From: Escherichia phage CMSTMSU
Strand: one strand, 5' to 3'
Sequence record: MH494197.1
Length of the DNA: 64,000 nt
The notes under the pieces were generated by a model. The model was not told the origin of the DNA. It searched no databases and was given only the letters and a program-made list of their open reading frames with translations. Within the stretch, counting starts at the first letter, position 1; each line of letters opens with the position of its first letter. Positions 13,551 through 39,062 of the stretch are shown here, in pieces. A program made the translations under genes and the position numbers.

Positions 13551-13608
13551 AATGCCTCCAATTAAATTAATCTATCACGTAGACGGTCGTAATATTTTGC
13601 ATGTATAT

Positions 13609-13983
13609 CTAGTATACACTGAAATGACGGATAGTCAATACTAAATGTATCATCAATGAACATGTACTGATCAAGTGTTTCAGGACCATTATCATAAACT
13701 GGCAATGAACCTTCTTTTTTAACAGTGTGTTCCACATCAAATCACATGTAGTATCGAAAATTGCGTATGCTAATTCTATCTTACTTTTTCTAAGTGTAAT
13801 TAATAATTCATCATTCTCTACTAACGCGTTTCGTATTTTTACACGTACTGTACCCTGAAATTTATTAGTGGTTAGTACTCTATATTGATTATACGAAATC
13901 ATGCCTCGTATTTCAGTACTGATTTCTTGTTCAGAAAAGTACCTTAATGTACTGTGGAAATTTGGTATTTTACGAATGTCCAT
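13609..13983 (-). CDS. hypothetical protein, tandem paralog 2
   Basis: Shares N-terminal and, in an alternative frame, C-terminal sequence with adjacent ORF 13970..14380. Confidence 0.3.
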   Translation of the reverse strand: MDIRKIPNFHSTLRYFSEQEISTEIRGMISYNQYRVLTTNKFQGTVRVKIRNALVENDELLITLRKSKIELAYAIFDTTCDLMWNTLLKKKVHCQFMIMVLKHLISTCSLMIHLVLTIRHFSVY

Positions 13984-14380
13984 TCAAATTCCTTTCGTAT
14001 ATATGGTATACGTTCATTATACTATTATATAGTTCAAAGTCAAATCCAAATGTGTCATCAATGAACTGATATTGTAGATACTCTTCATATGAAGCATCAA
14101 TTGGTAATGAGCCAGAACGAATATCATCTGATTTAAAATCGTCAATATATCTTAATGTTATTTCTTCATCAACAGTGATATCTATCATCAACGTATCGTC
14201 ACTGTACCAAAGGTTATGTATACGGATGTAAAGTTTCTTAGCACGATTAAAACTAGATACATTGGTATTGCGATGGAGTTTATCTAAGTTGAAGTAAAAC
14301 CGGCTCGTTTTACTTATGTTTTTCATATGTTCTGCAATCGAATCAATTATATAATCAATGTTGAATGTTCTCATAAACAA
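13970..14380 (-). CDS. hypothetical protein, tandem paralog 1
   Basis: 136 aa ORF; GSLP..D..Y.QYQFIDDTF region similar to neighbour. Confidence 0.3.
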   Translation of the reverse strand: MFMRTFNIDYIIDSIAEHMKNISKTSRFYFNLDKLHRNTNVSSFNRAKKLYIRIHNLWYSDDTLMIDITVDEEITLRYIDDFKSDDIRSGSLPIDASYEEYLQYQFIDDTFGFDFELYNSIMNVYHIYERNLNGHS

Positions 14381-14481
14381 ATCTCATAGCGGTTTGTGTT
14401 TGGATTGTAGCAATAGGTATCATTAATTTTAACACCGGTTTAAGTGTTATTGTTGTTCCTACTTCAGTACTGGGTTCTGCA

Positions 14482-14679
14482 TCACAATAAATCATCACAC
14501 CAACGCCACAGATTAAAGCTAAGATACAAATAATAGCACATATTATATATTCCATCACTCCCCATCAGCCAATCAAAGAGACGTTCCAAGAAGCCATTAG
14601 GCTTGTATTCTGGTTCTTTGTTCACGTCGGTTTCTTGTTCATAAACACCCAAATCTTCTTCAAGTATAATTGTATTCAT
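14482..14679 (-). CDS. small acidic ORF carrying a 40 aa segment duplicated upstream of the CCA-adding enzyme
   Basis: MNTIILEEDLGVYEQETDVNKEPEYKPNGFLERLFDWLMG closely matches [39 protein letters not shown] at 13430..13550. Confidence 0.35.
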   Translation of the reverse strand: MNTIILEEDLGVYEQETDVNKEPEYKPNGFLERLFDWLMGSDGIYNMCYYLYLSFNLWRWCDDLL

Positions 14680-15062
14680 TATATATTATACTCTATTATA
14701 CCATCATCACTTTCACCAGACAACCACTTAATGTAATTTACTTTGTAGAAATTAATCAATGCATAAGTGCTGTACTCAATCAACAAGTGATCTCTCAAGA
14801 ATTCGTCTTGAGCATATCCATCTTCATCCAAATCTGTTGGAATATCAGTTTCTTTGTCTTGAATGTGTAAAGTTATTGTGTCTTTTGTTATACAAATTTT
14901 TATATGATTACAAATAGTAATGATGATTATGCTATATGTTCTATTGAAATATATTGTGAAATCTTCATTAATATTATATCTTCGACTTTCTTCATATTTC
15001 TGATATGGGTCGAAATGTGATAAATTAACTTTAATTAATGTATTTCTCAACTTACACCTCAA
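14679..15062 (-). CDS. hypothetical protein
   Basis: 127 aa ORF. Confidence 0.3.
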   Translation of the reverse strand: MRCKLRNTLIKVNLSHFDPYQKYEESRRYNINEDFTIYFNRTYSIIIITICNHIKICITKDTITLHIQDKETDIPTDLDEDGYAQDEFLRDHLLIEYSTYALINFYKVNYIKWLSGESDDGIIEYNI

Positions 15063-15575
15063 TCATATAAAGTAATTATACATTTTATTGTACAATATAA
15101 AAGGTCTTTCACATTATCATAAGTAATATCAGATATATCATGAATTAATGATAACTGAAAAATGAAGCTTCGTCTATCTCTACTGGGATTATAACATCAT
15201 AGTCTTCGTCAATTTTATGGGTGTAGTATTTTATGTGATCAGCATTCAACACAAGGTTGTATTTTGTATCATCTTCAATTAATCCGACAAATTGAGATTT
15301 TTGATTAATAAAAATCCAATCCCAACACAACGGTTATCTGGATATGGATAGTACCATCTATTAATAACTAGGTGTTCAGGTAAGTCCATATCATGTGTTG
15401 ATATTAAAGATTTTACAATTCCCATCCGAGAATAATTCATAATTAAAACTCCATAAGAAAAGGGACAGAATAATCTCTGTCCCTTTATTATATCTTACTC
15501 TTCGTCTTCAGTCAAGTCTTCTTGAACTGGATGTTCGGGTGTTACGGCGATGCAATTTGATGCTTTTGTCTTTAC

Positions 15576-15824
15576 CTAAGACAGTTTCCATTTTTCAAAT
15601 GAATCACCAATTGCTTTGTATAAATCTGCATCATCGGCGGTGACAATCTTACCACCTGATGTTAAAGTTACGGAATATTGATTCTTATGCTCTTTCTTCA
15701 CATGAACACCGATATAAAGTACTGAAGAATCACTAAATTTCGTTAGTACATTTGCTTCTGCATGAATCGCGTCATTGATTGCTGGAGTAATATCAACATT
15801 ACCTTGGATAACTAAATCTAGCAT
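15576..15824 (-). CDS. putative ribosome hibernation promoting factor (HPF/RaiA-like)
   Basis: MLDLVIQGNVDITPAINDAIHAEANVLTKF...VTLTSGGKIVTADDADLYKAIGDS follows the HPF pattern (L.ITG.N.EIT.AL...V..K..KL ... GG.I.A...DMY.AID). Confidence 0.4.
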   Translation of the reverse strand: MLDLVIQGNVDITPAINDAIHAEANVLTKFSDSSVLYIGVHVKKEHKNQYSVTLTSGGKIVTADDADLYKAIGDSFEKWKLS

Positions 15825-15839
15825 AATTTACCTACCTTT

Positions 15840-16457
15840 TTAGAGTGAGCTTAACAGCAAATCCGCTCTGTTTGTAACTTGGCGATACCACAAGGAATTC
15901 ATGATTTCTTTCTTGAACTTCTTAGGGTTATCCATTTTAACACTTTTCCAAAGTTTGTCAAATGTTGCCAACTTATCAACGCCCATTGTGTATGACATTT
16001 CAAACAGGATACGCTGCTGTTCTTTTGTCAGATTAACTGCATCTTTCTTCTGCATCAATAGTGTAAAGTCCTCGTAAGTCCTTTTCATATCTTGCATTAA
16101 AAGTTTGTTGGCCTGTGCTTTGGTAATCCCGTTTCTGTACTTCATTGCATCAGAATCTTTCTTACCCAAATAATGCCCATAACCAATTGTATAATTACCT
16201 TTCATGTCCTTATAGGGATGAAATTTAGAATTGTGGAAAGGAACTCCAACTTTCCCACCAAGTAATTTACGTTTGTTCTTGGACTGAAATTCAATAGAAC
16301 CTTCAGCTTCTTTGATGTGATCGACAATTTCTGGATCTTTATAATCAAACAGTACAGTCACATCTGGTAACAATACGTTCTTCAAATCCTCTTTTGTTGG
16401 GATAAAGATACCCTGAGAAGTATGAAGAGTTGCATTTAAGTTGATATTCTTCAACAA
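15840..16457 (-). CDS. T4-type lysozyme (glycoside hydrolase family 24) with about 100 aa N-terminal extension
   Basis: TIGYGHYL and SLWYRQVTNRADLL match T4 lysozyme TIGIGHLL and SRWYNQTPNRAKRV. Confidence 0.8.
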   Translation of the reverse strand: MLKNINLNATLHTSQGIFIPTKEDLKNVLLPDVTVLFDYKDPEIVDHIKEAEGSIEFQSKNKRKLLGGKVGVPFHNSKFHPYKDMKGNYTIGYGHYLGKKDSDAMKYRNGITKAQANKLLMQDMKRTYEDFTLLMQKKDAVNLTKEQQRILFEMSYTMGVDKLATFDKLWKSVKMDNPKKFKKEIMNSLWYRQVTNRADLLLSSL

Positions 16458-16517
16458 AATGACATAATCTTCAATCTGTACATTTTAGGTTTAAATTTCT
16501 GTGCAATAGAATAATAA

Positions 16518-16718
16518 CTATCTCGGTTGAACCGTATAATGTTTCTCGCTGCTTGGAACTGCCTTTGGTACTGATACCTTTAGTAGTTCCTGCTTTTGAA
16601 TTTGTACAACTTGTGGTTTTAAATTATGCACCTGACTTTCGTCTAATGATGATGCACGATCACTTTGAGAAAAACCATAAAATCCAATCGCAGCGAATAG
16701 GGCTGATGAAACTAACAC
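16518..16718 (-). CDS. small membrane protein upstream of lysozyme (holin or signal-anchor candidate)
   Basis: N-terminal hydrophobic stretch LVSSALFAAIGFYGF; position next to lysozyme. Confidence 0.25.
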   Translation of the reverse strand: MLVSSALFAAIGFYGFSQSDRASSLDESQVHNLKPQVVQIQKQELLKVSVPKAVPSSEKHYTVQPR

Positions 16719-16928
16719 GCCTATGGCAATTTTAGTTTTCAGTGCTTTTTCGCTTTTTCAAAACGCCTCCTTTGTTGGTTGTTAACAATGAGCAATCACA
16801 AAGAGGGCAAAGAGGCCATTTGCAAAAGCCTCATTGGACTTTCTACAGTACTCATTTGTTCTTTGGAACATTTAAGTAGTATAGCATACTTTTTAGTTAT
16901 ATCAAGACCTATTTACCAAATAACCACA

Positions 16929-17320
16929 TTAATCGTAGTATGTTCTACCAATGGTGATGTGATATTTGAAATATTTAGATGCCAAACCCAGTTCATTACG
17001 AATATGTGCAATGAAATCATCTTCAAACTCTATGATAAAGAATGACCGTTTCTTATTGTCTTTTACTTCTTCGATGAAAGGATCGAACTTAATCTTAACT
17101 TTCATACCATCGTACTTTTTCCAGTACTCTGGATTTGGTGGCACTTCACCACGAACGATACTGACATGTGCTCCCCATTGTGGGTCTTTAATATCAATAT
17201 GTAAGTCAGTTCTGATGAAGTACTGGTAGTATCGAACCAACTGTAATGGAAGTTGCAGTACTAACCAGAAGTCCTTCTTCTTTTCATAGTGCCACGATCT
17301 GGATCATACACCAGAGTTCC
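16929..17320 (-). CDS. putative 2H phosphoesterase (LigT/Acb1-like)
   Basis: Two H-x-[ST]-x motifs (HVSIV and HITIG) about 80 aa apart in a protein of about 130 aa. Confidence 0.35.
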
Positions 17321-17692
17321 TTCCATTTCAATCATATTTTACCTATAAATTTACATATATATTTTTATTTTCAATACGAACATAAGTTTCTAAAACATCT
17401 TTCGGAATTTTATTACTTGTTTTGTACCATGTAGTATTATCTACTAAAACAAAAGTTTCACCTTCAGTTTCACCAAATGTACTTAGTGCATAAATGAAGT
17501 AGTTTGGTGATGCACTACAATAAACATCAGCATTAATTTCAATCATATTTTACACCACAATAAAGCTTAATACAACGAGTGTAATAAACACACCCACAAT
17601 GGCGGTCATTTCAGGGTTAGCATCGTATGTATAACGGATGCACTTTAGAAAATCTTTACCAAACTTTTTTAGTCCATTCATATATTTTCCTT

Positions 17693-18049
17693 TCATTTCT
17701 TGTGTAAAGGGTCGGCACTTTCATAATAGATTGTATCATTGTTTCGCTCAATAGTAAAACTCTTTTGACACAACTCTTCAGCTAAACCCTTAGCATAGTT
17801 TAATACATCTCGGTTGAGATATACTTCTTCTTTTGGGAAGCGTGGGTACTGAATAATACGAGCACACATTCCACTTTCAAGACCACCCGTGTAGATGTAT
17901 TCACACGGAATCAATTGTACACAAAATCCAAGCTTGAATGCAAACTTTCGTGTGTACTCTCTTGCTGTTTGGATATCACCAGCAATATGAATATTCCAGT
18001 ACTGTGTTTCAACTGTACCTTTGTCGATGTATTTCATACTCATCTCCAA
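17693..18049 (-). CDS. hypothetical protein
   Basis: 118 aa ORF. Confidence 0.3.
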   Translation of the reverse strand: MEMSMKYIDKGTVETQYWNIHIAGDIQTAREYTRKFAFKLGFCVQLIPCEYIYTGGLESGMCARIIQYPRFPKEEVYLNRDVLNYAKGLAEELCQKSFTIERNNDTIYYESADPLHKK

Positions 18050-18435
18050 TTATAGCATAAAAATCCTACTTGCCCAAATCTTCTATAATTCTTTTATGAT
18101 ATCATTGTTTTCCAGACATAAAGTACTGAAATTTCTACCTGTTTTTTCATTGAGTTCATTAATCTCAAGCATAAGATAACCATAAGTGATATCTTGAACC
18201 CTACTTCGTTTTACCCTTGAGTACAGTCTGATGGGTACAGATACGCGAGTATTCAAAAGAATTCTGATAAATCATAACGATATACGGTATTCATTCTTGT
18301 AACGTTTACGACTGTACGATTCTAAACACTGTGGGAAACGTCTATCAAACATACTACTTCTTAGTTGAAGTATGATTGATCTAACTTATGCGAGAAATAC
18401 TTTTGATTATTTTATTAAATCTTGTTACATGTCGT

Positions 18436-18891
18436 TTACGCCATCTCATAATCAAACCTTAAAAATATAATAGGAAAGTATTTTGTTTCCGAATCTGAAA
18501 TACTGTTACAGTAATCTTTCAATTCATCATGGATAACATTCAAATGAATAGTAGGATAGTTCATAGGTTTCTGTACTGGGCCAGTGGCATATACGCAATC
18601 TGTTCTATCCCAACTTACATATTGGGTTGGGTAATTATCTTTAGTACGTTCTTCAATAATAATATTATATTCTGGTGTATTGAATACATACATATCACAT
18701 TGTGAAATGTACTGAACATTAAAATCACCATCAGTTAGATGGATCATGTTCCCATCGCAATATAAGCATGATGGTTCAGTGTATCCTAAAATTGAAGATA
18801 AAGTTCTGAAGTTTGCTCGACCCAAATATACCAAATTCGTGTGTAAACAAATATCAATGAAACGTTTGAAGACTTCAGTTTCGTTATGCAT
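18436..18891 (-). CDS. hypothetical protein
   Basis: 151 aa ORF. Confidence 0.3.
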   Translation of the reverse strand: MHNETEVFKRFIDICLHTNLVYLGRANFRTLSSILGYTEPSCLYCDGNMIHLTDGDFNVQYISQCDMYVFNTPEYNIIIEERTKDNYPTQYVSWDRTDCVYATGPVQKPMNYPTIHLNVIHDELKDYCNSISDSETKYFPIIFLRFDYEMA

Positions 18892-19074
18892 ATAGATACC
18901 TTAAAAAGACCCCACATAGTGAGGTCAAACACTTTTAAACGTTATCATCATCCAAAGCTTCACGGTAAACATAATAAACATGCGTACCTAGAAGAACAAT
19001 GAGTACAATGAATACTAACCAGAATGGTACAAAATGCAGTACAAGTGCAAATGCCATTACGGTAATAACCATCA

Positions 19075-19731
19075 CTACTGAACTAAAAATAAGACTAGTC
19101 GCTTTTTAAATCCAGATAGTACATCATTCAAAACGCGTTTCATAAATGAATCAACCATTTTATTCCTCATATAATCCATATAGCAAGTTCTGCATAGACT
19201 CTTGTATGATTCATCACCACCAATAAAGACTTTATCAGTACTTTCAACTATACGGGCATTCATAGTGGCTTCTTTGCCACACTTCTGATTCTCACACACG
19301 TTCTTAAGTTCATGTATGTCATCAGCTATTTCGAACAGTCTTTGTGAACCTTCAAAAGATTGGATTCAAAATCTGTTCGTATTCCATAACAGGAAACATC
19401 AACACCATAATTATCTGCTATATCAGCTAAATGGTCAATTTGTTCTCTGTTTAAAATTGACATTCATCAACATAGATACTGTTAATGTCAACGTCATTTT
19501 TGAGTGTTTCTTTAACTTTAAGAAGAACACTAATGTCATTTTTGGAATTACTTCAGCCACAGCTTCGATGCCAATTCTTGAAGTAATCTTTCCTGTTCCA
19601 TAACGATCATCAAGTGCACTGGTTAAGTAAATTACCTTCATTCCATTTTTCTTATGGTTATATGCTTTTTGTAAAAGATGAGTACTTTTACCACTAGACA
19701 TACTACCATAGTAATATACTAATTTACCCAT
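19075..19731 (-). CDS. tk: thymidine kinase (frameshifted into two fragments)
   Basis: MGKLVYYYGSMSSGKSTHLLQ P-loop, YLTSALDDRYG, and C-terminal zinc motif CRTCY in 19075..19299. Confidence 0.85.
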
Positions 19732-20170
19732 TTTAATCCTTAAGTACGTGTGCTTACATTTTAATCTATTACCATAGGATGAAATTGGGATATTGAACAT
19801 TTCTATTTTACCCTCTTTTAAAAGACGTAAAATATCTGGATCGTTTTGGTTTGTACACAATGAAGACCATTGACTTGAATTTCTAAACCATTCTTCAGAA
19901 ATTCATAAATCTTCTGTCTACGCTTCCCACCGAAACTTTCATTTCGGATAACATCTCTTAGGTCTTTATATTCTTGTTTTAATTTCCTGTCAAAAGTGTT
20001 CCATCTTTCTTTCTGATTTCTTCAATACACTTATATTGAGTTTGTCCTCTAAGAGCCATATTTGACCTCGTTGGGATATTTCTTCATTAACTCATGTAAA
20101 CGTTGAATTTCCTGATTTTTCTTATGTTCTTCATCATACTTCTTAGAAAGATTCTTTCTTGTATTTGTTT

Positions 20171-20527
20171 CTAATAATCTAAAATTAGTACAGAATCTAT
20201 CATTTTAGCAACGTTCTTACGTAACGCATCAAAAACAGTACTGAAATAGTTATCCAATGGAAAAGAAGTATCAGTGTAATTATAAAAATCCATTACATTT
20301 GTCATGTTCACATGTTCAATTACCGCACCATTGTGCGTTACAATAAACATTATATCACCATAATTACAATTTGCATCAGTACGGTACAGATATAAATGAT
20401 CACGTAAATAATCTTTTAATTTATGTTCAATACCACTTTGTTCAGTACTTTGAAATACCAAAACTTCACCATAGATTGTATTACCTTCATAATCATTTGG
20501 TTCGCGGATAATTGTAAGGTTATACAT
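20171..20527 (-). CDS. hypothetical protein
   Basis: 118 aa ORF. Confidence 0.3.
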   Translation of the reverse strand: MYNLTIIREPNDYEGNTIYGEVLVFQSTEQSGIEHKLKDYLRDHLYLYRTDANCNYGDIMFIVTHNGAVIEHVNMTNVMDFYNYTDTSFPLDNYFSTVFDALRKNVAKMIDSVLILDY

Positions 20528-20535
20528 ATAACTCC

Positions 20536-20826
20536 TTATACCGGAGATACGGTACTCAGCATTAGTAGAGCAGTGTTTTCATCAATTTCATGTTGATTGT
20601 CGCACACTAGTGTTTCCAATAGGTCTGGATTGTAATAATAATGTTCATAATCTGTATCATTTGGAATATGGTGATAGGTGAATACAATGTCAAATACATC
20701 ATCATCATTTTCACTTTTGAAACGCTTTAATTCTTCTACACTTTCAACAAAACCATACTCTTCAAAAGCAGTAGTACCATCAGTAAGTTTCATCCATGCA
20801 CTTGCGACAATTTTCATAAATTTCAA
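20536..20826 (-). CDS. hypothetical protein
   Basis: 96 aa ORF. Confidence 0.3.
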   Translation of the reverse strand: MKFMKIVASAWMKLTDGTTAFEEYGFVESVEELKRFKSENDDDVFDIVFTYHHIPNDTDYEHYYYNPDLLETLVCDNQHEIDENTALLMLSTVSPV

Positions 20827-21097
20827 ATCCTTATTCTTTTGTAATGTTTAGTTTAGAAACGAAATGGTTTTTGCTTCTTCAAATGTCATTGAAGTATATA
20901 CTGGGTTCCAATTATCGTCAAGATCTGTAAGTACTTTAACTTCCATTACATCTTCAGGTGTGTAGAATTGCCATGTGTTATGATCTGGTTCATAATTAGG
21001 GTCTAGTGTGAAAACTGTTCCATTCTGACCATAAACTTGTCCATCCTCTAATAGCTCACGAAATAAGTCTTCCCCAGTTGTTGGGTCTTCGTATGCA

Positions 21098-21415
21098 TTA
21101 TAAAAGGAAAACAACATTCTCAACATCAGTTCGGGTAGTACCATCGTCTTCATCATATTCAACCAAACGGTCCTGATGAAATACTAGGTCAATAGCACCA
21201 ATGCGAGGTTTATTATGTGGAGTTTTGATTTCTTGCTGGGAATTGTAATCCATACGTTCAGTACTGATGAATACACCACTTGGTGTGATTTCAATACCAG
21301 ATACATTTTCTGGTGAATAATAAGAGTCACACATATCATCAATATGCATGTGCTCATGATACACTTCCATTTCAGGGTTCTGCATCAACAGTGCTGCTAG
21401 GTCTTTTGCTTTCAA
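21098..21415 (-). CDS. hypothetical protein, paralog of 22380..22805
   Basis: MKAKDLAALLMQNPEMEVYHEH...ITPSGVFIS vs MKSHDLAKLLLSQPNLDIYHYD...VTPSGIFTT. Confidence 0.35.
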   Translation of the reverse strand: MKAKDLAALLMQNPEMEVYHEHMHIDDMCDSYYSPENVSGIEITPSGVFISTERMDYNSQQEIKTPHNKPRIGAIDLVFHQDRLVEYDEDDGTTRTDVENVVFLL

Positions 21416-22004
21416 TCTTCAATCTCCATAGAGTCATCACTTTCGTAATCATCACTAGTGTACTTAGTTTTACCTCAATACCATTCTCATGAAGGTATGT
21501 GATAAAGCCATTACCATGAACGAATTGATTATAATATGTATTTTCTTCTACATGTGAGTCATAATCATCTTCGTAATATGTGGGCATTGTAACATCATGA
21601 CCAGCACTTTGCAAGTACTGGAACAATTCTTTCAGAACTACTTCGATATCACCTTCTTCTGTGCCATAACAATATGCAGGTTCACCGTGAGTGAATTTGA
21701 ATCCTTTACAGGAAACTGTATAAATGTCACTCATGTTCATACCACAATCATCACATTCATGTATAGAACAATGCTGGTGGAATTTAATCTTTTGATTTGC
21801 ATTTAGAAAATCCTGTAAAGATGTAGTAGACATTGGACTATCAGCACCATCATACCACAGTGATGTATATGGCTGAACTGAACTAATATCAATACAGAAT
21901 CCTTCACGCTCACATTTTCGAGCGAATTCTTCAGTAGTTAGTTTGTTACCAAAAGAAATCTCAAATTCATAACTAGACATATCAATATCAGTACTGTAAA
22001 TCAA
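21372..22004 (-). CDS. hypothetical protein
   Basis: 210 aa ORF with Cys/His cluster. Confidence 0.3.
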   Translation of the reverse strand: MIYSTDIDMSSYEFEISFGNKLTTEEFARKCEREGFCIDISSVQPYTSLWYDGADSPMSTTSLQDFLNANQKIKFHQHCSIHECDDCGMNMSDIYTVSCKGFKFTHGEPAYCYGTEEGDIEVVLKELFQYLQSAGHDVTMPTYYEDDYDSHVEENTYYNQFVHGNGFITYLHENGIEVKLSTLVMITKVMTLWRLKIESKRPSSTVDAEP

Positions 22005-22379
22005 TGTACCATCATATGTAATATGGAGTTTAGAATCTGCGTCAAAAGACGATCTGAAATAGCTTCATAATCATCTTCAGGAACTGCTTCAATAAGACGG
22101 GCCATTAGTCCAGATGTTACGCGGTAATCACTCATTTTTAATCCTTTTTTATTTTTCAAGTTTATCAATAATAGAAGGTGATACTTTTACATTGAATTCA
22201 GAATCAGGAAAATCTTTAGAAAATGAATCAATTTGTTCTTGTGAAAGTTCTTCTTTTGTGGAAATAACATTTTAACTAAATTTTTACCACATTCAATTGC
22301 TTCATCATACGACATAGTTTCCCATGTTCCATGCCAAGTACTAGGTTCATATTCTGTCAGTACAGAAATGAAATCAATA

Positions 22380-22805
22380 TCATCGGGTGTATACCAAACA
22401 GCATTTTGATTCCTGATGGTGCTGATTGATTTTACCTAATAAAACAATTGGCTTTTCATAAGGAATGTTAAATATCAACCCAGATTCTAAGTTAAGAACA
22501 GTTTGAATAGATGAACCCTCCAATTTTGGAGTAATAGTACCATCCTTAAAGAAAATTTGTACATGACCCAAGAGTGGGGTTTCATATGGTGTAAGTACAT
22601 TTTCAGAAACTGATGTGGGTTTTGCCGTTGTGAAAATACCAGATGGGGTGACCATTAATTTATTATCAAAATTCTGATAATGCAATTCACTATCCACATC
22701 ATAATGATAAATGTCTAGATTTGGTTGAGATAGTAGTAATTTTGCTAAATCATGAGATTTCATTTTATTTCTCCAAAGAAAAGGAGAGTCACAATGACTC
22801 TCCAT
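22380..22805 (-). CDS. hypothetical protein, paralog of 21098..21415
   Basis: Shared N-terminal and central motifs with 21098..21415. Confidence 0.35.
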   Translation of the reverse strand: MESHCDSPFLWRNKMKSHDLAKLLLSQPNLDIYHYDVDSELHYQNFDNKLMVTPSGIFTTAKPTSVSENVLTPYETPLLGHVQIFFKDGTITPKLEGSSIQTVLNLESGLIFNIPYEKPIVLLGKINQHHQESKCCLVYTR

Positions 22806-22829
22806 ATATTTTATTGTAAAACTTTGAGT

Positions 22830-23248
22830 TTGTAAAGCATTCCTTCACAAAAACTCATAATGTCTTCTAGCGTGTTAGTACTACCATAGTCTTCAGCCTC
22901 TTCTAGCATAGCATGAATGGCTTTACATTGACTAACATATTCTTCAAGAATTGGTACACAATCCTCGATAGGGTAAAACGATAACTGTTACCAGTACCTA
23001 CCTGCAATGCCCGCAGTGTTCATAATACCCTCTACAAATGCATCAACGTACTCAGGTAACTCTTTGTATAGTTCATCCAATTGTAGGTGCTTCGTGTAGA
23101 AATGGCTCTGTAAATGCCAGTTGTGAGCAGCAGCACTTAAAAATAAACTATTCTCAATAAATGTAAGTAGTACTTCATCATAAGAACTATCTTCTTCAGT
23201 ATCTCCGATAAAGTCCATTACATGTCGTAAATCATTAATATTTTCCAT
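22830..23248 (-). CDS. ferritin/Dps-like four-helix-bundle protein (tentative, frameshifted)
   Basis: AAHNWHLQSHFYTKHLQLDELYKELPEYVDAFVEGI resembles Dps signature (HWNV.G..F..LHE.FEE.Y.E....VD). Confidence 0.3.
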
Positions 23249-23424
23249 AAATCTCTCCTTAGAGTTATTCTATGGTATTTAGTTAATAATAAAGGTAACT
23301 TCAGGATTCATTTCTGAAACTGCATTTCTCTTACTTCTATTCCATAGTACTCTATTGTTATATAATGAAGAATCACAAATTATAAGTAAGCAATTCCTTA
23401 ATCTACTTACAGTACTTTGATTAC

Positions 23425-23706
23425 TTAAATCAGTTTCTGTAACAAAAATACATTATCAGGAACTTCTACAGGAATTGATTTATCAAAGAAGAAAACTACA
23501 ATAGGTCTGTTTGTATGAACTAAATTAATAAAGTCTAAAATACTGTTATAAAATTCAGTTCCTTTGTTTAAACTTAATGGATCTTTGATTCTCTTCAAAT
23601 AGGTCTGAACCAAATTATGATCGCTTTTGATTTGATACTCAAAATATTCTTTGAATAACATTTGTGTTAATTCAGATGTATTGGATATTTTCGTTGTGTT
23701 ACTCAT
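23425..23706 (-). CDS. hypothetical protein
   Basis: 93 aa ORF. Confidence 0.3.
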   Translation of the reverse strand: MSNTTKISNTSELTQMLFKEYFEYQIKSDHNLVQTYLKRIKDPLSLNKGTEFYNSILDFINLVHTNRPIVVFFFDKSIPVEVPDNVFLLQKLI

Positions 23707-23709
23707 TCA

Positions 23710-24555
23710 CTTCGTTCTCTCGTAACTCAAGAAGTCACTACGTTTACTTCGTAAACTAGTTCCTTCTGAAAATGATAATGTACTTTAAAAGCTTGACGGG
23801 ATTTGTTGAGGACTATTTCATCCCGCAGGAATGAAGGTAATAAAAAGAGACAATTAAGTCTCTCTTGACGATGATGGCATCGGATATTATCGAATTGAAT
23901 TTCTCAAATTTTGGACGGATCTTTCCTGTACCAAAATTTAGAGAGCGAAAGCGGGTTGCTCGGTTTCTCTCTATCGCAGTCATATGCAACGGTCGCTGGT
24001 CTTTTCATCAACAGCACTCAGTACTAAACTCTATTCGATCAAAGTAGTACCTGTTCTCAAATTTTGGACGCAACTTTCTTGTAAAATCGCGTCCACAATC
24101 CTTGAACTCCCTTAGCAAATTCGTAAGGTGCGAACCTTATACATCTATCTAGGAACTCTCTGTGTGCTTATTGGAGTTCTTTATACAGCCGTGTCGCCGT
24201 GATTCGTGGTCTTATCTCGTGTTTGTTTGATTGCCAGTACTCTAACAGGTTTCTTTTGCTGTTCGCTACAACGGTAAAGCTCATCTATCCTTTACATTTT
24301 CAAGAGAAGTAGGTTCTCATTATCCATTTTTCAATGTCCGTTGTCATTTTACAATATACATTATATCACTAGGATGTATTATGTCCCGTTACATGTATAC
24401 CTTTTTCAAATCCTTGGAACAACGGTCAAAATTGTGTTGATGAATTCGACATCCTCTTTGATATTGGAGTCTATAGCATCATTCTCGTTTCTTGTTGTGT
24501 TCCTGTATTTGTGTTCAGGGTGATTGTATACCACCTTGACTACATTATTTAGGTC
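23710..24555. other. ORF-poor, GC-richer island with direct repeat and hairpins; candidate structured ncRNA or regulatory region
   Basis: No minus-strand ORF over about 850 bp in an otherwise tightly packed region; 16-nt direct repeat tctcaaattttggacg twice about 160 bp apart; several stem-loops including a GNRA-type hairpin. Confidence 0.3.
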
Positions 24556-24784
24556 TACAAAAATGACGATTTTTGCGTATAGGAAGCCTGAAGCTTGATG
24601 AGTTTACCATCGTTTTGTAGATTAGTCTTGTGAATTAGTTCTTCAATACCATCTAAATGGCTATAGCTATCCTGTTCTTTGACGAATGTAACAGTTACCA
24701 GTACTGACTTCTCATCTCCAAAGTCAGAGATATTTTTAACAGCACTGATGATTTCTAAGTTTGAAAAATCTAATTCTTTTAGCA

Positions 24785-25111
24785 TTACAAATATTTCCAC
24801 AAAGTTCGATAAGTGATAATTTCTTCTCTGGTAACAGAAACTTCATAGCACTTAACACCATCAGTTTCATTTCTGAATGGTTCTGCTGGTCTATCTTCTG
24901 TTAAACCTCGTTCATACGTACAATGATAATATTTGTTCGTGTTCATGTCAAGAAAAACTAGATCAAATTCTTCTGTCCATCGTCTATGCCCTTTACTTTC
25001 ATTACTAATGATTTTGTACTTAACATCGGGATTGAATGATTCAGTACTGTCATCCCATGTACCATAGTCAGTATATTCATCATCTTCATCTAACTCTGCC
25101 AGATGCCACAT
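24785..25111 (-). CDS. hypothetical protein
   Basis: 108 aa ORF. Confidence 0.3.
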   Translation of the reverse strand: MWHLAELDEDDEYTDYGTWDDSTESFNPDVKYKIISNESKGHRRWTEEFDLVFLDMNTNKYYHCTYERGLTEDRPAEPFRNETDGVKCYEVSVTREEIITYRTLWKYL

Positions 25112-25149
25112 TAACTGTGGTAAAAGATTTTAGATTTCATTTATTTTCT

Positions 25150-25180
25150 CCAAAAATAGGGACTCGATTTCTCAAGTCCC
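25150..25180 (-). terminator. hairpin terminator
   Basis: atagggact...agtccctat inverted repeat. Confidence 0.4.
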
Positions 25181-25246
25181 TATCATAACATATTAATTGT
25201 GATTATTCAATTTCTTTTGTTCTTTTTAGAGCTTTCATATGTCGTC

Positions 25247-25800
25247 CAAAATCACGAACATGCCATATATGGTCGGTTTCCCATAGTTCTGTACGTAAAC
25301 GGCGTTCTTCCAATTCTTCTGGAGTAGGAATTTTAGATTTCTTCTTATCTTTATTGAAAAAATCATTCATATGTTCTTCCAGTAGATTTCTACCCTTAAC
25401 TTTTTCCGGAATTCATCTACTGATTCAGTTTTATTAGAACGAAGACTGTTACAACGTGAACACATGGTGTTGTAATTTGACTCTAAATCAGGTCCACCCT
25501 TAGATGCTAGTTGGTTATGATCTACTGTCATCAGTACTTCATATAGACCACAAACTGCATAGACATTTAAGTGAGGTTTACCATATACCGGATCAGTGCT
25601 ATGTGAACGCTCAATGCGAACTTCAGTGGCTTCAATACCACACGCAACGCATTTACAATTCTTAACGAATGTAAGTACTTTTGTGGGAAGTATCGGAAAG
25701 TAACACCGTTATATGTATAGCGTTTCATCTGTGTACTTCTTTGATTTAACTCATCAAGAAGTGATAGTTTGGCAACATAGTAGACCTGATATTTTGACAT
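25247..25800 (-). mobile_element. HNH endonuclease gene (frameshifted)
   Basis: Hand translation gives VDHNQLASKGGPDLESNYNTMCSRCNS, matching the HNH D-H...GG...N...C..CN pattern, preceded by CxxC. Confidence 0.5.
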
Positions 25801-25802
25801 TT

Positions 25803-26117
25803 TTAATCCTCGGATTTAATTTTAACCTTAACATCTTGATTTTGTAAATCACGAATAGTTTTAATTAATGCATCATGTTTTAGTGCACAGTCATTGTACA
25901 TTGCATCCCATTTTACGAGTACTGCAAGAATTTCAGCACCATCATATCCTCTGAACCCGTTTTTATCGACCATGATTTTACTTGGTAGTGGTGTATTTTC
26001 GTCACAACGTTCAAGTAAGATTTCTTGTTCTACAATTGGTTTAGGTTGATACTTAATTTCTTCAGCACAACCACTAATTAATAGAAAAGAAATTGCAAAT
26101 ACTAAAGCGTATTTCAT
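25803..26117 (-). CDS. putative outer-membrane spanin (lipoprotein)
   Basis: Signal peptide with lipobox LISGC; start overlaps stop of upstream ORF. Confidence 0.45.
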   Translation of the reverse strand: MKYALVFAISFLLISGCAEEIKYQPKPIVEQEILLERCDENTPLPSKIMVDKNGFRGYDGAEILAVLVKWDAMYNDCALKHDALIKTIRDLQNQDVKVKIKSED

Positions 26118-26490
26118 TTGAATTTATTCCTCGCTGCAAGGGAATTCTGTTTAAGTTCATTCAGAAGTTTAACGCCATCTTCATCTAGACATACGTTTTT
26201 GTAAACTTCTCTTTCTACTATAATAGGCACTTGTGTCTCGATAACTTTAGCATTATCTTGCATTATCTTTTGGTTTCTATATAGTTTTTGCATTTTCTTG
26301 CTGCATCTTAGCGAGTGCAGAATCAACTTTCTTTTCTATTTTTGGTCAATACTTTCTTTATAACCAGTATAATAAGTATTTGCTGACCATCCACCGTAAA
26401 CACAACCTGCCATTACTCCTACTACCAAAATTGGTTTCCAATATGGTATTAAAACTTTTGAAACAATAATTTCTAGTACACTCATAATAA
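26114..26490 (-). CDS. putative inner-membrane spanin (N-terminal TM helix, frameshifted)
   Basis: Hand translation shows N-terminal hydrophobic helix followed by charged helical segment in ORF 26114..26326; adjacency to lipoprotein. Confidence 0.35.
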
Positions 26491-26525
26491 CATCTCCTAT
26501 AGTTGGTAATATTATTTAGAGTGTA

Positions 26526-28198
26526 CTATATTATATGTTTACAACATTTTTGAATATGATCTACGAGTTTATACAGTTTAGTGTTTTCATTCTCGTATTC
26601 CAAATCAACTTCAACTTTGAATTCTTCTTCAAGTTCCATGATCATTTCAATCCAGTCAAGCCAATCGAATTTAAATTTTTCCACGACTTCACATTTAGTA
26701 AGATGGAAGTTCATTGATACATCTTTTTCGGATGCATTTTTGTCGCGACTTGTAATGAATTTGACAATTGCTTTTTCAACGTCAGTTAGTTCACGTGTGC
26801 GATATTCTGGTTCAAGATACCATTCGCCATTATTGATAGCTTCCAACGAAAGTCTAAGTTCATGCATTAGTTTATAACGATCAGTACTTTTATGGATGCG
26901 GTTAACTTCGCGATTCAGTACACGTAGTGCGTCTTTGATTTGTTCGTTTAGCATAACAATCCTCTTATTTTTTCTGTACCATTGCATTTCACGGATATCT
27001 AATAGTACCTTCGTAGCCAACTTTATGTTTGGTCGCTTCGGTAGATGGGTCTTATGATACGCCACATTTCGGATGTAGTCAACCTTTTCGTTGAAATAAT
27101 CCATAACTTCTTGATACAACCACTTCCCGTTACGAATGTCCATCAACATAGCAGCATCCGGTCGGTGAACTTGGATGATGCCAGTTTCAAGTGCTTCCTG
27201 TGCTGTATTCAGCAGCCTGATTGTATGCATAGCATGTTTGCAGTCATAACCGTGGTGTGATTCAAGAATAGCACGTTTGGCATTACGATTCTGCTTCCAT
27301 TTGTGATAACTCTTACGGTTCTCACTATTTTCTTTGTATTCCTTTTCATTGAATTTTACAATGAGTTCAGGACGAACTTTCAATTCTTCTGTAGTACGTT
27401 CTTTGTTGAAGTAACGTAGTGAACCATCAGCATTCACTGTACTTTCATTCGGGTTGATAATTACCCCAAAGATGTTTTCACCGTAATGGATTAGTTCATA
27501 TCCAGAATTGTAATTCAATAAATTGAAATCACGATCTAATACTTTATCAGTACTATAATTATGTACTAAACGTACAAAATGATATTGTTTCAATGCTTGT
27601 GTTGAAACTAATTGTAATGAAGTATCACGCATGTATTTTTCAAAATCAATTTTTGTAGCATTGAATGGGTGAAGATTGGATTTATTCAAACGGTCAACCA
27701 AATACTGCGGGAATGTATCATACATCCATGAAAGTACTTCGTCAACTGGATGTTCTTCTAAAATTTCATTTAGTTTACGTTCAGCAATTCGTTCCTTATC
27801 GAGCCAGCCGTGGTGATTAGACATACGCTTAACCTGATTGTATGCATATCCACTGTATGAGTGTGCAATCTTTGAACTCAATAATTGCTGATTGAATGAG
27901 CGTAGATAGTCATAGATTTCAGTACTTTCTACGATGTGTTCCGGTTTAACCCATAGTGATTCAAGAATGTTTGGGTTAGCTTCAGTATACAGACTTAAGT
28001 ACTGATTGATTTCATAAAATTTAGTATCTTCTTCAGAAGTATCTGAAACTTCCTTAACATTAAAAAAGGAGTTAGGATATATTCTTTGTTTGCAAGGAAG
28101 ATACCACGATAATCTGTATCACTTTCTGGTGTGCTTGTATACGCCTGTGAACCAGCTAAGTGTTTCACAATAGTTTGTTCTAGAAAATTGTTTTTCAT
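26526..28198 (-). CDS. Pol-beta-type nucleotidyltransferase fused to a degenerate ACP-like C-terminal domain (frameshifted near N-terminus)
   Basis: N-terminal fragment 27995..28198 has GS-x9-DxD (LAGSQAYTSTPESDTDYRGIF); ORF 26526..27881 has HHGYDCKHAMHTIRLL and a C-terminal DWLDWIEMIMELEEEFKVEV segment resembling acyl carrier protein DSLD...ELVMALEEEF but with Ser replaced by Trp. Confidence 0.4.
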
Positions 28199-28596
28199 AA
28201 GTAAATCGTTAACTCCTTTAGAAAACCATTATAGTATCGTTTAAAATCATGATCCAGTACTTGATAGTCATTGTAACTAAATCCAAGATTGATGATGGTA
28301 TCTTCTTGGAAGAATTTCTCTTCATTCATTACTTCGATGGGTTCGTATTCTTTCCCACCTTTATATACTTTAGTAAAGAACATACCATCATTGTTAATTT
28401 CAACGTACATGAAATTATTTTCTGGATCTCGTGGACACACAATGTTTAGTGAACTTGTCCCATTGTTATTATATTCGTATGAAATAATATCAAAAGAATC
28501 GATACCATAACATTTGGACTTTTCTTTGTCACCAAAGACTTTTCTATCTGTACTCATATTGCGTATAGTACTGTAGATATCATCGATTGTAGTCAT
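28195..28596 (-). CDS. hypothetical protein
   Basis: 133 aa ORF. Confidence 0.3.
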   Translation of the reverse strand: MTTIDDIYSTIRNMSTDRKVFGDKEKSKCYGIDSFDIISYEYNNNGTSSLNIVCPRDPENNFMYVEINNDGMFFTKVYKGGKEYEPIEVMNEEKFFQEDTIINLGFSYNDYQVLDHDFKRYYNGFLKELTIYL

Positions 28597-28993
28597 AATT
28601 AACCACCGTACTTTGACTTATATGTTTCTAAAGATAAAGAAATGCGATTTTGCTTTTAATTCTTTCATCAATATCCTTTGAATTCTTAACACTTCTGTAT
28701 ACATCAGCTAATAAATTATAATCTTCTTTATTTGAGCTATGTAATGCCCAACCTATATCTGTTTTGATTCGAACATATGCTTTATTTGATGTGAAATAAA
28801 AATTGAATCCGTTAGACCCATCAAAAATATCATAAGTATTTACCCAATCTCCATAAGGAAAACTCATTGGTACTGACTCATAATCAATGGTGATATCCGA
28901 TAAATTTTAGAACAGTACTTTACAAAGTGGTAAACAATCGGATCACATTTTGATAATTCGTATTTGTATTCAATGATAGTTTTTCTATTAGTA

Positions 28994-29470
28994 TCATTGA
29001 TGGCATATTCTTTTATCAATGGACTTTTTGATGATAAGAGTCCATAGAAACGATTCTAATCCAGTTTCATCAACTTTTTCTTTCTTTTGAAAAATGAAAT
29101 CATTTATATAAACCCTTAATTTTTGTCTATTATGTATATCATTTTGCTGAATTTTCAAATTAGTAAGATTGTGTCTTACACCTTCAACGCCACGCATTAT
29201 TTGTAACATAATTAGTGATTCGTCATATGTTAGAACATTGCTATTATTATCGATATATACTTTCACTCCACTTTCAAGATAATCATTTTCTTTGGAGTTA
29301 AAGTTTCTAATAGCAAACTTAACGCCATTTGTTGCATCACTGAATACATATCGTTCCGCACCGTAGAATGTTTTTCCACGAAATAAACCGCCTTCTTCAA
29401 ACTTCCAACGACTGGATTCATAATCATTAACGTAATCAATGATTAATGGTAGCAAAGGGTGTTTGCTCAA
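28994..29470 (-). CDS. hypothetical protein
   Basis: 158 aa ORF. Confidence 0.3.
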   Translation of the reverse strand: MSKHPLLPLIIDYVNDYESSRWKFEEGGLFRGKTFYGAERYVFSDATNGVKFAIRNFNSKENDYLESGVKVYIDNNSNVLTYDESLIMLQIMRGVEGVRHNLTNLKIQQNDIHNRQKLRVYINDFIFQKKEKVDETGLESFLWTLIIKKSIDKRICHQ

Positions 29471-29614
29471 TTTATATTTTGCTTCTAACAGAACACGACG
29501 ATCTTGATCTGTATTGATGATATCTTTAAGTGTGAAACTTTTGATATAATTTTAAAGATAATTTCATGCCAAATTAAAGTACTGTTTTGTTTTCCAACTG
29601 GGCCAAAAACATAT

Positions 29615-30189
29615 TCATTCCTCATTAGTATAAATCAGTAATGTCTTTGTATGCATTAATCTGTTTTGTTGTAATGAAAGTTCATTGAGTTTAGTTACCA
29701 TTTTATCTACACCAACACGTATATAGAAAATAATAAATGAATCTAACTTGCCTAGAGTAATTCTTGAACTGTAAGTTGAAAGTTTTCTTGCATAAACATA
29801 AATTTCTTCTTCACTTGGTAAACGTTTCTCAATCAGCAAGTTTTCCACACCATTCGGCTCATAATCAATTTCGAACTCTACGCCTATCACAGTATCTTGA
29901 ATGATATCAGTATATGAACCACCGAAAAATACTCTCTTGGTTTGGCTCTCCAACGAGGACTAAATGGGTCAGATGCGTATTCTTTAACAAATTTGTAAAA
30001 GGACATTTTACTGAGCATATATTTCATCTCAATTAGTGCTTTGCGGTCATCATCAGTTTTAAACTCTGCTTTGAGCGATGGACTTTTACACAGTAACTTA
30101 ACTAAATTGTTGTACATCTTTAATGTACGTTGGTCTTTCATTTCTTGGATTTTGTGACGCTTTGGTGGTGGTAGTAAAGATTTGACCAT
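29615..30189 (-). CDS. hypothetical protein (two overlapping fragments)
   Basis: ORFs 29615..29953 and 29887..30189 on same strand. Confidence 0.25.
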
Positions 30190-30221
30190 AATTTCCTCCT
30201 GTATTTTCTAGCATTATACAC

Positions 30222-30245
30222 ATAAAGAAAAGCCCGTCAATAGAC
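30222..30245 (-). terminator. hairpin terminator downstream of fibre gene A
   Basis: gcccgtc aata gacgagc inverted repeat with T-run on minus strand. Confidence 0.4.
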
Positions 30246-30257
30246 GAGCTTAAAATT

Positions 30258-32977
30258 TTAATGCCAACGTGTACCAGAGCTTGAAGGAACACCAGAACTT
30301 GCAGGGATAGCAGAACCACGCTTGGTTGTACTAGGTCTGTATGTCAAGAATCGTGTTACCTTTTCCGTATCAATTGACGTGATACTCGTACTTCCAGTAA
30401 CAATATCACCAACGTATACGTTTGTCAATGTCTCATCAAGAAGAGTTGTACTGATAACGTATGCCGCTTTTCTTGTGTTACGGTTCATTTGAATGTAAAG
30501 ATAAAAAGTACTGTTAGCTGGGTTAGTTTTAATAGTACTTAATTCTATGGTTTGAATCGCTAATCTATCAAACATACCACCAAGGAATACCGGAACTTCA
30601 CGGGTGAAGTACACCGTGAAACCTTCAGCAACATCTTGTGAAACTACTACGATTTTATCTTGTACAGTTCCTGAACCATCAATCAACCCATCCATCTGTG
30701 CTGATGTTGTCCCAAAGAGACTAAACACTGCTTTAGTTTGATAATCTGAATCTTGAAGATGATAGTATCCAAATCCAACACCGGTATAACTCCGTGCTGG
30801 AATGCATTGCCATTATCTATGTAGCTGGATGACATAAATCGGTTAGATGTAATCAAACCATTCACTGTTTTAGCAATCATCAATTTGAATTGAGCATTAC
30901 GGTTGTGAAAACTGATGAACTGCATCAACCCCAATATAACCAAATCCAGAATACTTTGCAACAGTTAGACCAGTACAGCGTTTCATATAGGCTTCAGTTA
31001 CAATACCTGTTACAGAATTAAGTGTTTCGTATCTAGAACTCACCATAGTCGCAGAACTAATATTGGTTCCTGAAATGGTAACATCAACTTCAGAATATAT
31101 TGCATAACCTTGGTTATTGCCTAAGTTATATGCAGAAACCACCGCAATAGATTTTGAGAAAGAACTATCTGGTACATAATATAAAGCAATTTTACCAGTA
31201 AATGCTCCTACTATTCCAATATTAGCAAGTATTTCTTGTTTTAATGTTTCCAGAACATTATCACCAATTGTATAAGAACCATCAAATTCTAAAGTATCTG
31301 GGTTAAACAAACCACCACTTGTTTTGTATACACCTTCAATGAATGATGTCCCATAGCATTTAACTGAACCGTCAGTGTCAATTAATGAAATCATACCTGT
31401 ATATTTGTAGTTGTCGCCGAGGCGAATTCGGTTGGCTTGTGGTGCAAAACCATTAAGTGTTGTATTGTTTTGTACTGAATTGAACTGGAAGGTTGGTTCA
31501 GTACCAATTTCAGAAAATACTGTATTGTTATAGCCATATGACTCATCTTCATATGTTCCAGAACATGCTAACAGTACTTTACGTTTATCAATAAAACGTG
31601 TTCCTAAAAGGTTTTCACCTACTGCACTACCATATGTTGGTGCAACGTTTACAAATTTGGAATTGTTCGCTTTACGAGTACTGGCAACCCAACTATCATA
31701 TGGTGTTCCTGTTACGTTATAAACCTGAATACCATAGGTTTCAGATGAACTCCAACGAGCACGTGTGCTGAATACTAAACCGTCATAGGTTTGGCATATA
31801 GAACCAACGTTACCTAATTGTGGAACACCTAACTGTGTACCCATGAAGTTATTCATCTCAATGGCAAATGGGTTTGTTAATGTGAATCCATCAACATCAT
31901 TATATTCCGCTGCTATTGGTGCTCTACTACTTCCATCAATTGATAATGATTTAGAGTTGATAGTATAAACAAAACTAAAACCACTAGCATAAACAGTACT
32001 AATATATAGATTTGATACTAAACGGTTAGTTGGGAATAATGTAATTCTAATCTTTGATAAATCTGGACTTACGTTTGCTTGTATATTATAATCTGTATAA
32101 TCTGAATATTCAACTCGTGTAACTGGTGAAGTGCATTCAAATAATGAATCATTACTAGTTCCAACTGAATATAATCTTTCATAAATTTTCAAATTATTAG
32201 CACTTGTGTAGTTAACACTTCTTAAGGTTTGACCAGAAAACCAGTAACCTTAGCAAAAGTACTCATAGTACCATCTTTAATACTACTTGTATTAACAGTA
32301 TATAATGTTAAAGCCAAACCATAGTTTGCTATAGTAGTGTCTTTGCACCACACAAATACTTTATCATTGACGATATGTGCATATAATGGTTTATCTGTAC
32401 CAAATGATGTAGCAGCGATAGAAGCGTGAATATGTGCAACTTCGTTAAATGTACCATTTGTTAAAGTGAAAATATAATTACTTGCACTAGATAGGCTAAC
32501 TAGTAATTCATAACCATTCGTTCCGATAAACTGTTTAACATTTTCAGTACTTGGAAGAATTCTAGGATGATATTTTGATGTAGTACTGATAACACTACTT
32601 TGTGTTAGTGCATCAATATTACGCAAATCACGAATGAATGCATAGTAATATCCTTCAGTACTACCATTTGTACCAGCACGTAATACCACACCAGTACCAT
32701 CATCTTCGACTATTGTTGGTTGCATACGGTATACATCTGAAAGCGACGTTGCCTTCGTATGAACCATTAACGTTTAATGGTAGATAATCCATTTCTATAC
32801 GGGAGATTGGTAACATATCAAGTATTTTTGAACTTCTGATCTTTTATAAATTGGATAGTCAACAATACCTGTATTTGCGTCTGGTGCTGTACCATTAAAA
32901 GTACGCATAGCGTACTTTCCACCAATTGCCAAATTTCCAAGTATAGCAGCACTACCAATGATGCGTTTGGATGACAT
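30258..32977 (-). CDS. tail fibre / receptor-binding protein paralog A (about 900 aa, frameshifted)
   Basis: Ser/Thr/Asn/Gly-rich fragments 30258..30728, 30897..32192, 32222..32767, 32795..32977; shares N-terminal and C-terminal modules with paralogs B and C. Confidence 0.5.
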
Positions 32978-33000
32978 ATTCTTTTCCTTTAATTACCAGC

Positions 33001-33590
33001 CTAATGTACCAGTTTGTGTTGGATTTCCAGTACTGACTGGGAAAGATGAACCTTTTGTGTTGTACTTGGTCTGTATGTATTGAATCGTGATACGCGTTCA
33101 ATGTTGATAGCAGTAATACCAGAAGTTCCAACGGTAATAGTCCCGATGAACATTATAATCTGTGATTCTTGTAATTGTGAAGTTGAGATTCTATAAATTG
33201 GCTCACCCAGTACTAAAGTAGCGTATACATATTGTGTTTGTGTGCCTGATGCCACTGTTGGTGCTGTCACTGCAACAACAGGGTAATTATAAAGATAGCC
33301 ACCGATGAATGCAGGTATCTCTCGGTTAAAACGTAATGAATAACCGCTTGATGTAATTGACAAACTAGATACATCATAAAGTTCACCATATTGTGATAAT
33401 GGTAAACCGTTAACAATAGAATCAACTTCATCTTTTGTTAAGAGGGGAATGTACATTCCCCATTTGCGTCTGTTCGATACGATACGTCATTAATATCACT
33501 AATAGATAGTCCAGTGTTTTTATTCTGGACTACGATTTGTGACATAGCTTCGATATCGGATCTTATAATATATGCCATAAGATTAATCCT
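33001..33590 (-). CDS. short fibre-like paralog B (about 195 aa)
   Basis: Contains both the shared N-terminal motif (LPLSQYGELYDV) and the shared C-terminal domain (ITAINIERVSRFNTYRPSTTQK). Confidence 0.45.
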
Positions 33591-36273: not shown

Positions 36274-36334
36274 CATACATATCCCTTGTAATTTAGATAT
36301 TAGTTACTGTATTTATGAATGTAATAAAAAGCAC

Positions 36335-36358
36335 CCATTGGGTGCTTGTGTTTAAAAG
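36335..36358 (-). terminator. hairpin terminator at end of nrdG
   Basis: gcaccc att gggtgc inverted repeat flanked by A/T runs. Confidence 0.4.
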
Positions 36359-38956: not shown

Positions 38957-39062
38957 CTGGGGTGAAGTTATTTAACATCACCAGACACCATTATAGCGTC
39001 AGAACAGGGTATTTCTATTGATCTATATCAAGGAAAGGTCACATTGCTTTTATTTGCACAAA

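Follow-up and report, generated by a model that had tools for sequence, protein, structure and literature searches.

Two frameshifted genes of Escherichia phage CMSTMSU belong to an old paralogous family of RaK2-like jumbo phages

Two short open reading frames (ORFs) lie on the minus strand of a 64,000-nucleotide stretch of Escherichia phage CMSTMSU (MH494197.1; hereafter the window), at 21098..21415 and 22380..22805. They raise the question of whether they represent a duplicated pair of small phage proteins and, if so, what such a pair might do. An original prediction, made from the letters alone, took them for paralogous small proteins sharing an N-terminal motif (MK..DLA.LL...P....YH) and a central TPSG.F motif while diverging elsewhere, and regarded them as accessory genes possibly involved in host interaction. 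Our sequence analyses confirm the observation and partly support its interpretation. They settle that the ORFs are the remains of a true and ancient paralogous pair of genes of about 200 residues, here called A and B, which in this assembly are broken by frameshifts. The elements that carry the argument are the following, with profile positions referring to the family profile and Ecwhy_1, PBECO4, 121Q, WPEC3 and JNE01 denoting related phages.

21098..21415, minus strand: first ORF, 105 aa, TTG start, beginning MKAKDLAALLMQNPEMEVYH; N-terminal domain of gene A, profile positions 1-96
22380..22805, minus strand: second ORF, 141 aa, with MKSHDLAKLLLSQPNLDIYH from its residue 15
20831..21415, minus strand: gene A (A-type), 195 aa in Ecwhy_1 and in PBECO4 (gp051), 194-195 aa across intact relatives
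20851..21183, minus strand: second-frame fragment with the C-terminal domain of gene A, profile positions 87-169, E=2.4e-18
22149..22763, minus strand: gene B (B-type), 205 aa in Ecwhy_1 and in PBECO4 (gp054), equivalent to 121Q gp519
22190..22435, minus strand: second-frame fragment with the C-terminal domain of gene B, profile positions 127-177, E=2.1e-16
22783..22803, minus strand: terminator-like hairpin, GGAGAGTCA-TTG-TGACTCTCC, with a 9-bp stem and a T-run after it, between a Dps-like gene and gene B

Paralogy and reconstruction of the two genes

Both ORFs are indeed present on the minus strand at these positions, and they are significantly similar even as read: BLASTP aligned them over 80 residues (29% identity, E=3e-10), the alignment spanning the N-terminal motif, TPSG.F and P...P..G, so that both motifs of the original prediction fall inside it. 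After repair of the frames, the alignment of A with B extends over 185 residues (24% identity, E=2e-11) and includes YTPEDV..V.VLT..D..W....M.(F/Y).EA. The supposed divergence outside the two motifs is therefore only half true, as the repaired proteins are also similar in a second conserved block, located in the C-terminal domain (YTP.DV...VLT....W....M.(Y/F).EA). Four motif blocks are all found in A and B once repaired, namely M(K/T)..(E/D)LA..LL...P...V(Y/F), the TPSG.F hairpin, P...P.(I/L)G and DV..V.VLT..D..W....(M/F).(Y/F).EA. Nor does the description as small proteins hold, since 195 and 205 aa are encoded after repair.

A single PHROG accounts for both proteins almost end to end. Against phrog_18200 (PHROGs v4), A aligned through residues 1-194 on profile positions 1-188 of 191 (E=1.2e-84), and B through residues 1-171 on profile positions 1-191 of 191 (E=1.9e-71). 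A scan of the 64-kb window with the family profile detected the A and B loci only, each as two fragments in different frames, and no further paralogue was found in the window by tblastn or with that profile.

The fragmentation is traced to errors in the assembly. By megablast, the region belongs to Asteriusvirus, a genus of ~350-kb jumbo coliphages (the PBECO4/121Q/phAPEC6 group), and it matched Ecwhy_1, fEgEco12 and EC.P1 with 100% coverage and 98.9-99.4% identity. In a global alignment with Ecwhy_1, positions 20000-24000 showed 0 mismatches and 26 bases missing from the window, mostly in homopolymer runs; A and B carry no base substitutions relative to the Ecwhy_1 genes, from which they differ solely by the error frameshifts, and occupy the same syntenic position between the HNH/spanin genes and the thymidine kinase gene (tk). 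Counted over window positions 1..48517 (48.6 kb), 358 bases are missing and 30 are extra with respect to Ecwhy_1. The deletions cluster in reference runs of at least 5, and homopolymer runs of at least 6 number 17 in the window versus 76 in Ecwhy_1. Frame-shifting indels affected all genes examined (tail sheath, 7; neck, 4; RNR, 5; tk, 5; PhoH, 6). Because deletions so outnumber insertions, fall in such runs and hit every examined gene, the truncations are, on this sequence comparison, homopolymer under-calls in the assembly and not a biological feature or the result of pseudogenisation. With about 7 homopolymer deletions per kb, nearly every ORF of the window is truncated, fused or wrongly extended. 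Since every gene examined is frameshifted, ORF-based findings in the window need re-checking, and those resting on ORF length, on 'small proteins' or on gene fusions need comparison with intact Ecwhy_1 or PBECO4.

Relative to Ecwhy_1, gene A is broken by 1-nt homopolymer deletions at 20868, 21102 and 21108, the latter two being the reason why the first ORF ends early, and in tblastn the repaired protein matched 21415..20834, split over three frames. Its start is the TTG at 21415, which overlaps the upstream stop codon (TTGA). An ATG occupies the same position in JNE01, RaK2, KP13-7, Munch and Hallingskeid, and no part of the family is better conserved than its N-terminal helix, for which reasons the version of A annotated in Ecwhy_1 from an internal ATG is, as judged from these alignments, too short. 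Gene B is broken by deletions of the same kind at 22254, 22412 and 22430, and starts at the ATG at 22763, with a GGAG Shine-Dalgarno sequence at 22774..22771. The second ORF consists of a spurious 14-codon 5' extension followed by residues 1-127 of B, the last ~16 of them frameshifted. The 14 initial residues (MESHCDSPFLWRNK) are the hairpin read in frame, which is non-coding and is kept in Ecwhy_1 and WPEC3; the extension is spurious because the ATG at 22805 is in frame solely through a 1-nt deletion at 22775, its spacing to the real ATG of B being 42 nt in the window versus 43 nt in Ecwhy_1. Full-length A is intact in Ecwhy_1, PBECO4, 121Q, WPEC3 and JNE01, as is full-length B where it is carried.

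Two alternatives bear on this reconstruction. If the similarity arose by chance or from composition, the two ORFs would be unrelated, a view that can appeal to the low identity (24-29%) and to the behaviour of the TPSG motif, which on its own can arise repeatedly by chance: the profile also returned P0034, a repeat protein of 1189 aa that matches only via repeated 'LTLTPSGTV' units and was rejected as a spurious member. We regard the probability of this view as negligible, given 185 aligned residues, motifs collinear across 36 family members, and A-type and B-type clades joined by intermediate sequences; the significance of the full-length alignment, the common PHROG and a profile that matches just two loci in the window refute it. 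Genuine truncation, in which pseudogenes or deliberately split genes would yield the short ORFs as biological products, is very improbable. The window does encode A and B as fragments only, and several public proteins are likewise fragmentary (P0035, P0037, P0038 and BFVD entries of 89-95 aa), but the recurrence of the same indel type in tail sheath, neck, RNR and tk argues against it, and the 358:30 ratio of deletions to insertions, concentrated in homopolymers, is a signature of under-calling. Real pseudogenes are refuted by this error pattern across all examined genes together with the mismatch-free match to intact Ecwhy_1.

Distribution and diversification of the family

A tblastn search of 50,697 phage records found the family confined to RaK2-like jumbo myophages, comprising Asteriusvirus, Alcyoneusvirus (RaK2, K64-1, KP13-7), the Munch/7t3/SE_PL-like Salmonella phages and Erwinia phage Hallingskeid. 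Among 5.8e9 proteins searched by word index, 8 matched, and exhaustive scanning of 1.84e9 cluster representatives with the profile yielded 34 matches at E<=1e-3, which, bar one, were family members of 128-205 aa or obvious fragments. The GenBank homologues for phrog_18200 include both genes of Ecwhy_1 (QAY00540.1, QAY00543.1), PBECO4 (YP_009150365.1, YP_009150368.1), 121Q (gp521, gp519) and Munch (gp193, gp187), as well as RaK2 ORF017 (YP_007007172.1) and phAPEC6 gp302c. Both the genes and their grouping are thus already catalogued in GenBank and PHROGs, where no function is assigned to the family, and the novelty of the pair is low for that reason.

In a neighbour-joining tree the A-type clade (MKAK...) is separate from the B-type clade (MKSH.../MNSH...), which, alongside the full-length alignment and the common PHROG, bears out the proposed paralogy of these uncharacterised proteins. 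As Asteriusvirus, Munch and Hallingskeid each have members in both clades, the duplication predates these lineages. Comparative genomics, suggested earlier as a check on copy-number variation, revealed 1-3 copies per phage: RaK2 carries one, Hallingskeid and a metagenomic contig (L013) an adjacent B-A pair, and another contig (L011) three tandem genes. In the latter (SRR5149961_16946, positions 4068..5495), which derives from an uncultured RaK2-like phage, one B-type gene, whose 5' end was not called, accompanies two A-type genes, the highest copy number seen.

The two paralogues differ in retention. A was found in 35/35 Asteriusvirus records and B in ~24 of 35; the dN/dS of A is 0.12-0.15. 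The label 'accessory' stands for B, which is cleanly missing from about one third of otherwise near-identical Asteriusvirus genomes and is under weaker constraint than A. In WPEC3 (A 99.5% identical), the absence of B corresponds to an exact 634-bp cassette with 956/966 identical positions in the flanks, the cassette running from just past the Shine-Dalgarno sequence to just ahead of the next start codon. JNE01 and Turkey3 also lack B, whereas Ecwhy_1 and fEgEco12 carry it. By these genome comparisons, B is a dispensable cassette under relaxed constraint. In 121Q (L015, 2501..3133), the B homologue ends in ...KIGEFLNENQKD, the C-terminal end encoded by the adjacent 117-aa gene; a deletion has removed the bulk of the latter and joined what is left of it to B, an instance of cassette-level flux in the cluster.

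Protein features and proposed function

A and B are strongly acidic (A, pI 4.28, net charge -27; B, pI 4.57, net charge -15), and pI ranges from 4.05 to 5.8 across the family. Conservation among the 36 members is high at residues 1-20, 41-50, 61-80 and 151-190 and low in a middle segment of variable length (16-77 residues). The near-invariant positions (M1, L6, A7, L10, P14, P45, G47, F49, P66, P70 and W170) comprise hydrophobic residues, Pro and Gly only, and no Asp, Glu, His, Cys, Lys or Arg is conserved. AlphaFold2 gave a poor model from 12 sequences (pLDDT 67) and a confident two-domain alpha/beta model from all 36 (pLDDT 89, pTM 0.77). TPSG lies in this model at the turn of a beta-hairpin between strands E32-44 and E47-54, a position that suggests a structural rather than a catalytic role. 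An internal duplication of the N- and C-terminal halves (DLAALL...EVY versus DLFRELL...QVY) was considered and rejected, with an hhalign probability of 0.2%.

Searches of Pfam, NCBIfam, PADLOC, PDB and BFVD linked the family to no function and to no defence or anti-defence family. The best Pfam match, to DUF3195, had E=0.17 and scored 12 bits where the cut-off is 25, with no match consistent across the 36 members; NCBIfam returned nothing relevant for the proteins, a PDB sequence profile search gave 0 matches at E<=10, and 12 members compared with the defence-system HMMs of PADLOC-DB matched 0 families at E<=1. Foldseek against BFVD recovered only family members at E<=0.001 and, more weakly, a few uncharacterised phage proteins of 55-100 aa matching one domain (probability 0.99-1.0, E of at least 0.04). 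The acidic anti-restriction DNA mimics T7 Ocr, ArdA and T4 Arn are likewise strongly acidic, soluble phage proteins with no catalytic motif that lie among accessory genes, a likeness resting on bulk acidity (pI about 4.3, net charge -15 to -27), and no fold similarity of A or B to a solved mimic of this group was found. The GYF domain and ERH (enhancer of rudimentary), small alpha/beta folds, are also among the closest known systems. A role as host-interaction factors, as first envisaged for the pair, is accordingly neither supported nor refuted for the family.

The explanation that best accommodates these features, to which we give about an even chance as a whole, is that the frameshifted A and B are old paralogues of a RaK2-like family of soluble, acidic, two-domain binding proteins that stay out of the virion and have different partners. 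With modest confidence, we infer an intracellular, non-virion and non-enzymatic role exerted by partner binding. Both proteins would be made in the infected cell as soluble alpha/beta proteins, left out of the virion, and would act without catalysis, by binding a partner stoichiometrically. On this view the scaffold would consist of the conserved N-terminal helix, TPSG hairpin and C-terminal domain, specificity would lie in the hypervariable middle segment (16-77 aa), and each paralogue may address its own partner. The most plausible class of partner would be a basic or nucleic-acid-binding host or phage protein, and an acidic binder of such a protein, serving counter-defence or host takeover, would be the most attractive candidate function. 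The non-enzymatic reading follows from near-invariant residues that lack typical catalytic types, and the non-virion reading is consistent with the phAPEC6 virion proteome of 62 proteins, from which the A homologue gp302c is missing (PMC7247149, Table 1).

Several points weigh against this explanation. No homology or experiment connects the family to a function, and binding is preferred over catalysis only on the grounds of missing conserved polar residues and missing matches to known folds. The acidity is not specific to the family, because it is common to six neighbouring genes. A single virion proteome lacking gp302c does not exclude low-copy packaging, and B could not be detected in that proteome, because its phAPEC6 homologue is mis-annotated as the 55-aa gp305c. 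The dN/dS of B is 0.51-0.56, a value that rests on low divergence (dS 0.03-0.16). A literature search on Asteriusvirus transcriptomics, aimed at the timing of expression, gave nothing relevant.

Two rival functions are less likely than an intracellular binder. A and B could belong to the virion or the internal head, packaged together with the adjacent Dps-like DUF5856 protein, whose phAPEC6 homologue is itself virion-associated and whose link to the family survives changes in local gene order; we consider this improbable, since gp302c is not among the virion proteins of phAPEC6, B is dispensable, and no structural match to known virion proteins was obtained. An enzymatic role within the nucleotide-metabolism block around them (tk, dNMP kinase, Nudix, RNR, dCMP deaminase) would agree with their location in a long co-directional block rich in such genes and with the presence of tk 3-8 genes away from the family gene in every relative. 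It appears quite improbable, and the composition of the near-invariant residues, noted above, speaks for the non-enzymatic reading. The binder explanation could also be carried further: the family may consist of fast-evolving host-takeover or counter-defence binders, limited to RaK2-like jumbo phages and different in fold from every solved structure, whose variable middle segment and 1-3-copy cassette turnover track host targets, perhaps jointly with the neighbouring module of a virion-packaged Dps-like DUF5856 protein and acidic proteins of 93, 117 and 130 aa. This extension is doubtful. The biological weight of the pair is small at present, these being two copies of a catalogued, uncharacterised jumbo-phage family; if a counter-defence or host-takeover factor of new fold were involved, natural near-isogenic phages with B (Ecwhy_1, fEgEco12) and without it (WPEC3, Turkey3) would provide a ready test system.

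Genomic neighbourhood

The pair lies within a co-directional minus-strand block of at least 50 kb, which extends from the tail and neck genes across nucleotide-metabolism genes and small unknown ones. Locally, the Dps-like gene is followed by B, genes of 117 and 130 aa, A and a gene of 93 aa, and tk lies beyond these. Three neighbouring features were delimited.

21412..22135, minus strand: two uncharacterised acidic genes between A and B, homologues of Ecwhy1_262 (130 aa) and Ecwhy1_263 (117 aa); phrog_9509 and phrog_10749
21372..22004, minus strand: 210-aa ORF, an artefactual fusion of the Ecwhy1_263 and Ecwhy1_262 homologues
22811..23248, minus strand: Dps/ferritin-like gene, Pfam DUF5856, E=1e-27

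The 117-aa and 130-aa genes are not members of the A/B family and overlap by 20 nt in intact relatives. The 210-aa ORF is a fusion because a 1-nt deletion in an A-run at 21790 joins their frames, while a second deletion at 21468 alters its C-terminus. DUF5856 neighbours the family gene in the phages and metagenomic contigs examined, with the one exception of L014, which ends close to the family gene. Linkage of both DUF5856 and tk to the family is held in RaK2, Munch, Hallingskeid and two metagenomic contigs, though local order varies; as all of these are related phages, shared synteny suffices to explain it. The phAPEC6 Dps-like homologue, gp306c, is virion-associated with 65.8% mass spectrometry coverage (PMC7247149, Table 1).

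Six contiguous minus-strand genes at 20539..23248, from the 93-aa gene through A, the 130-aa and 117-aa genes and B to the Dps-like gene, are all strongly acidic, with -7 to -16 net charge per 100 aa, and the flanking genes are neutral or basic. This shared acidity may reflect a functional module or local composition alone. The tk gene, at 19326..19860 on the minus strand, is read as two ORFs through its 5 indels, the Ecwhy_1 copy being intact (194 aa); PBECO4 has no tk annotated at the matching position.

An apparently non-coding gap of ~700 bp lies at ~23710..24400, between the Ecwhy1_266 and Ecwhy1_267 homologues. Searches for tRNAs and Rfam families around the locus, gap included, gave no match, and the promoter scan yielded 29 matches against 24.8 ± 4.5 in shuffled sequence, not above expectation. 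The gap holds two of the four top sigma-70-like matches of the minus strand (24387..24360; 24347..24319) and is also present in Ecwhy_1, PBECO4 and JNE01, with a similar one in RaK2.
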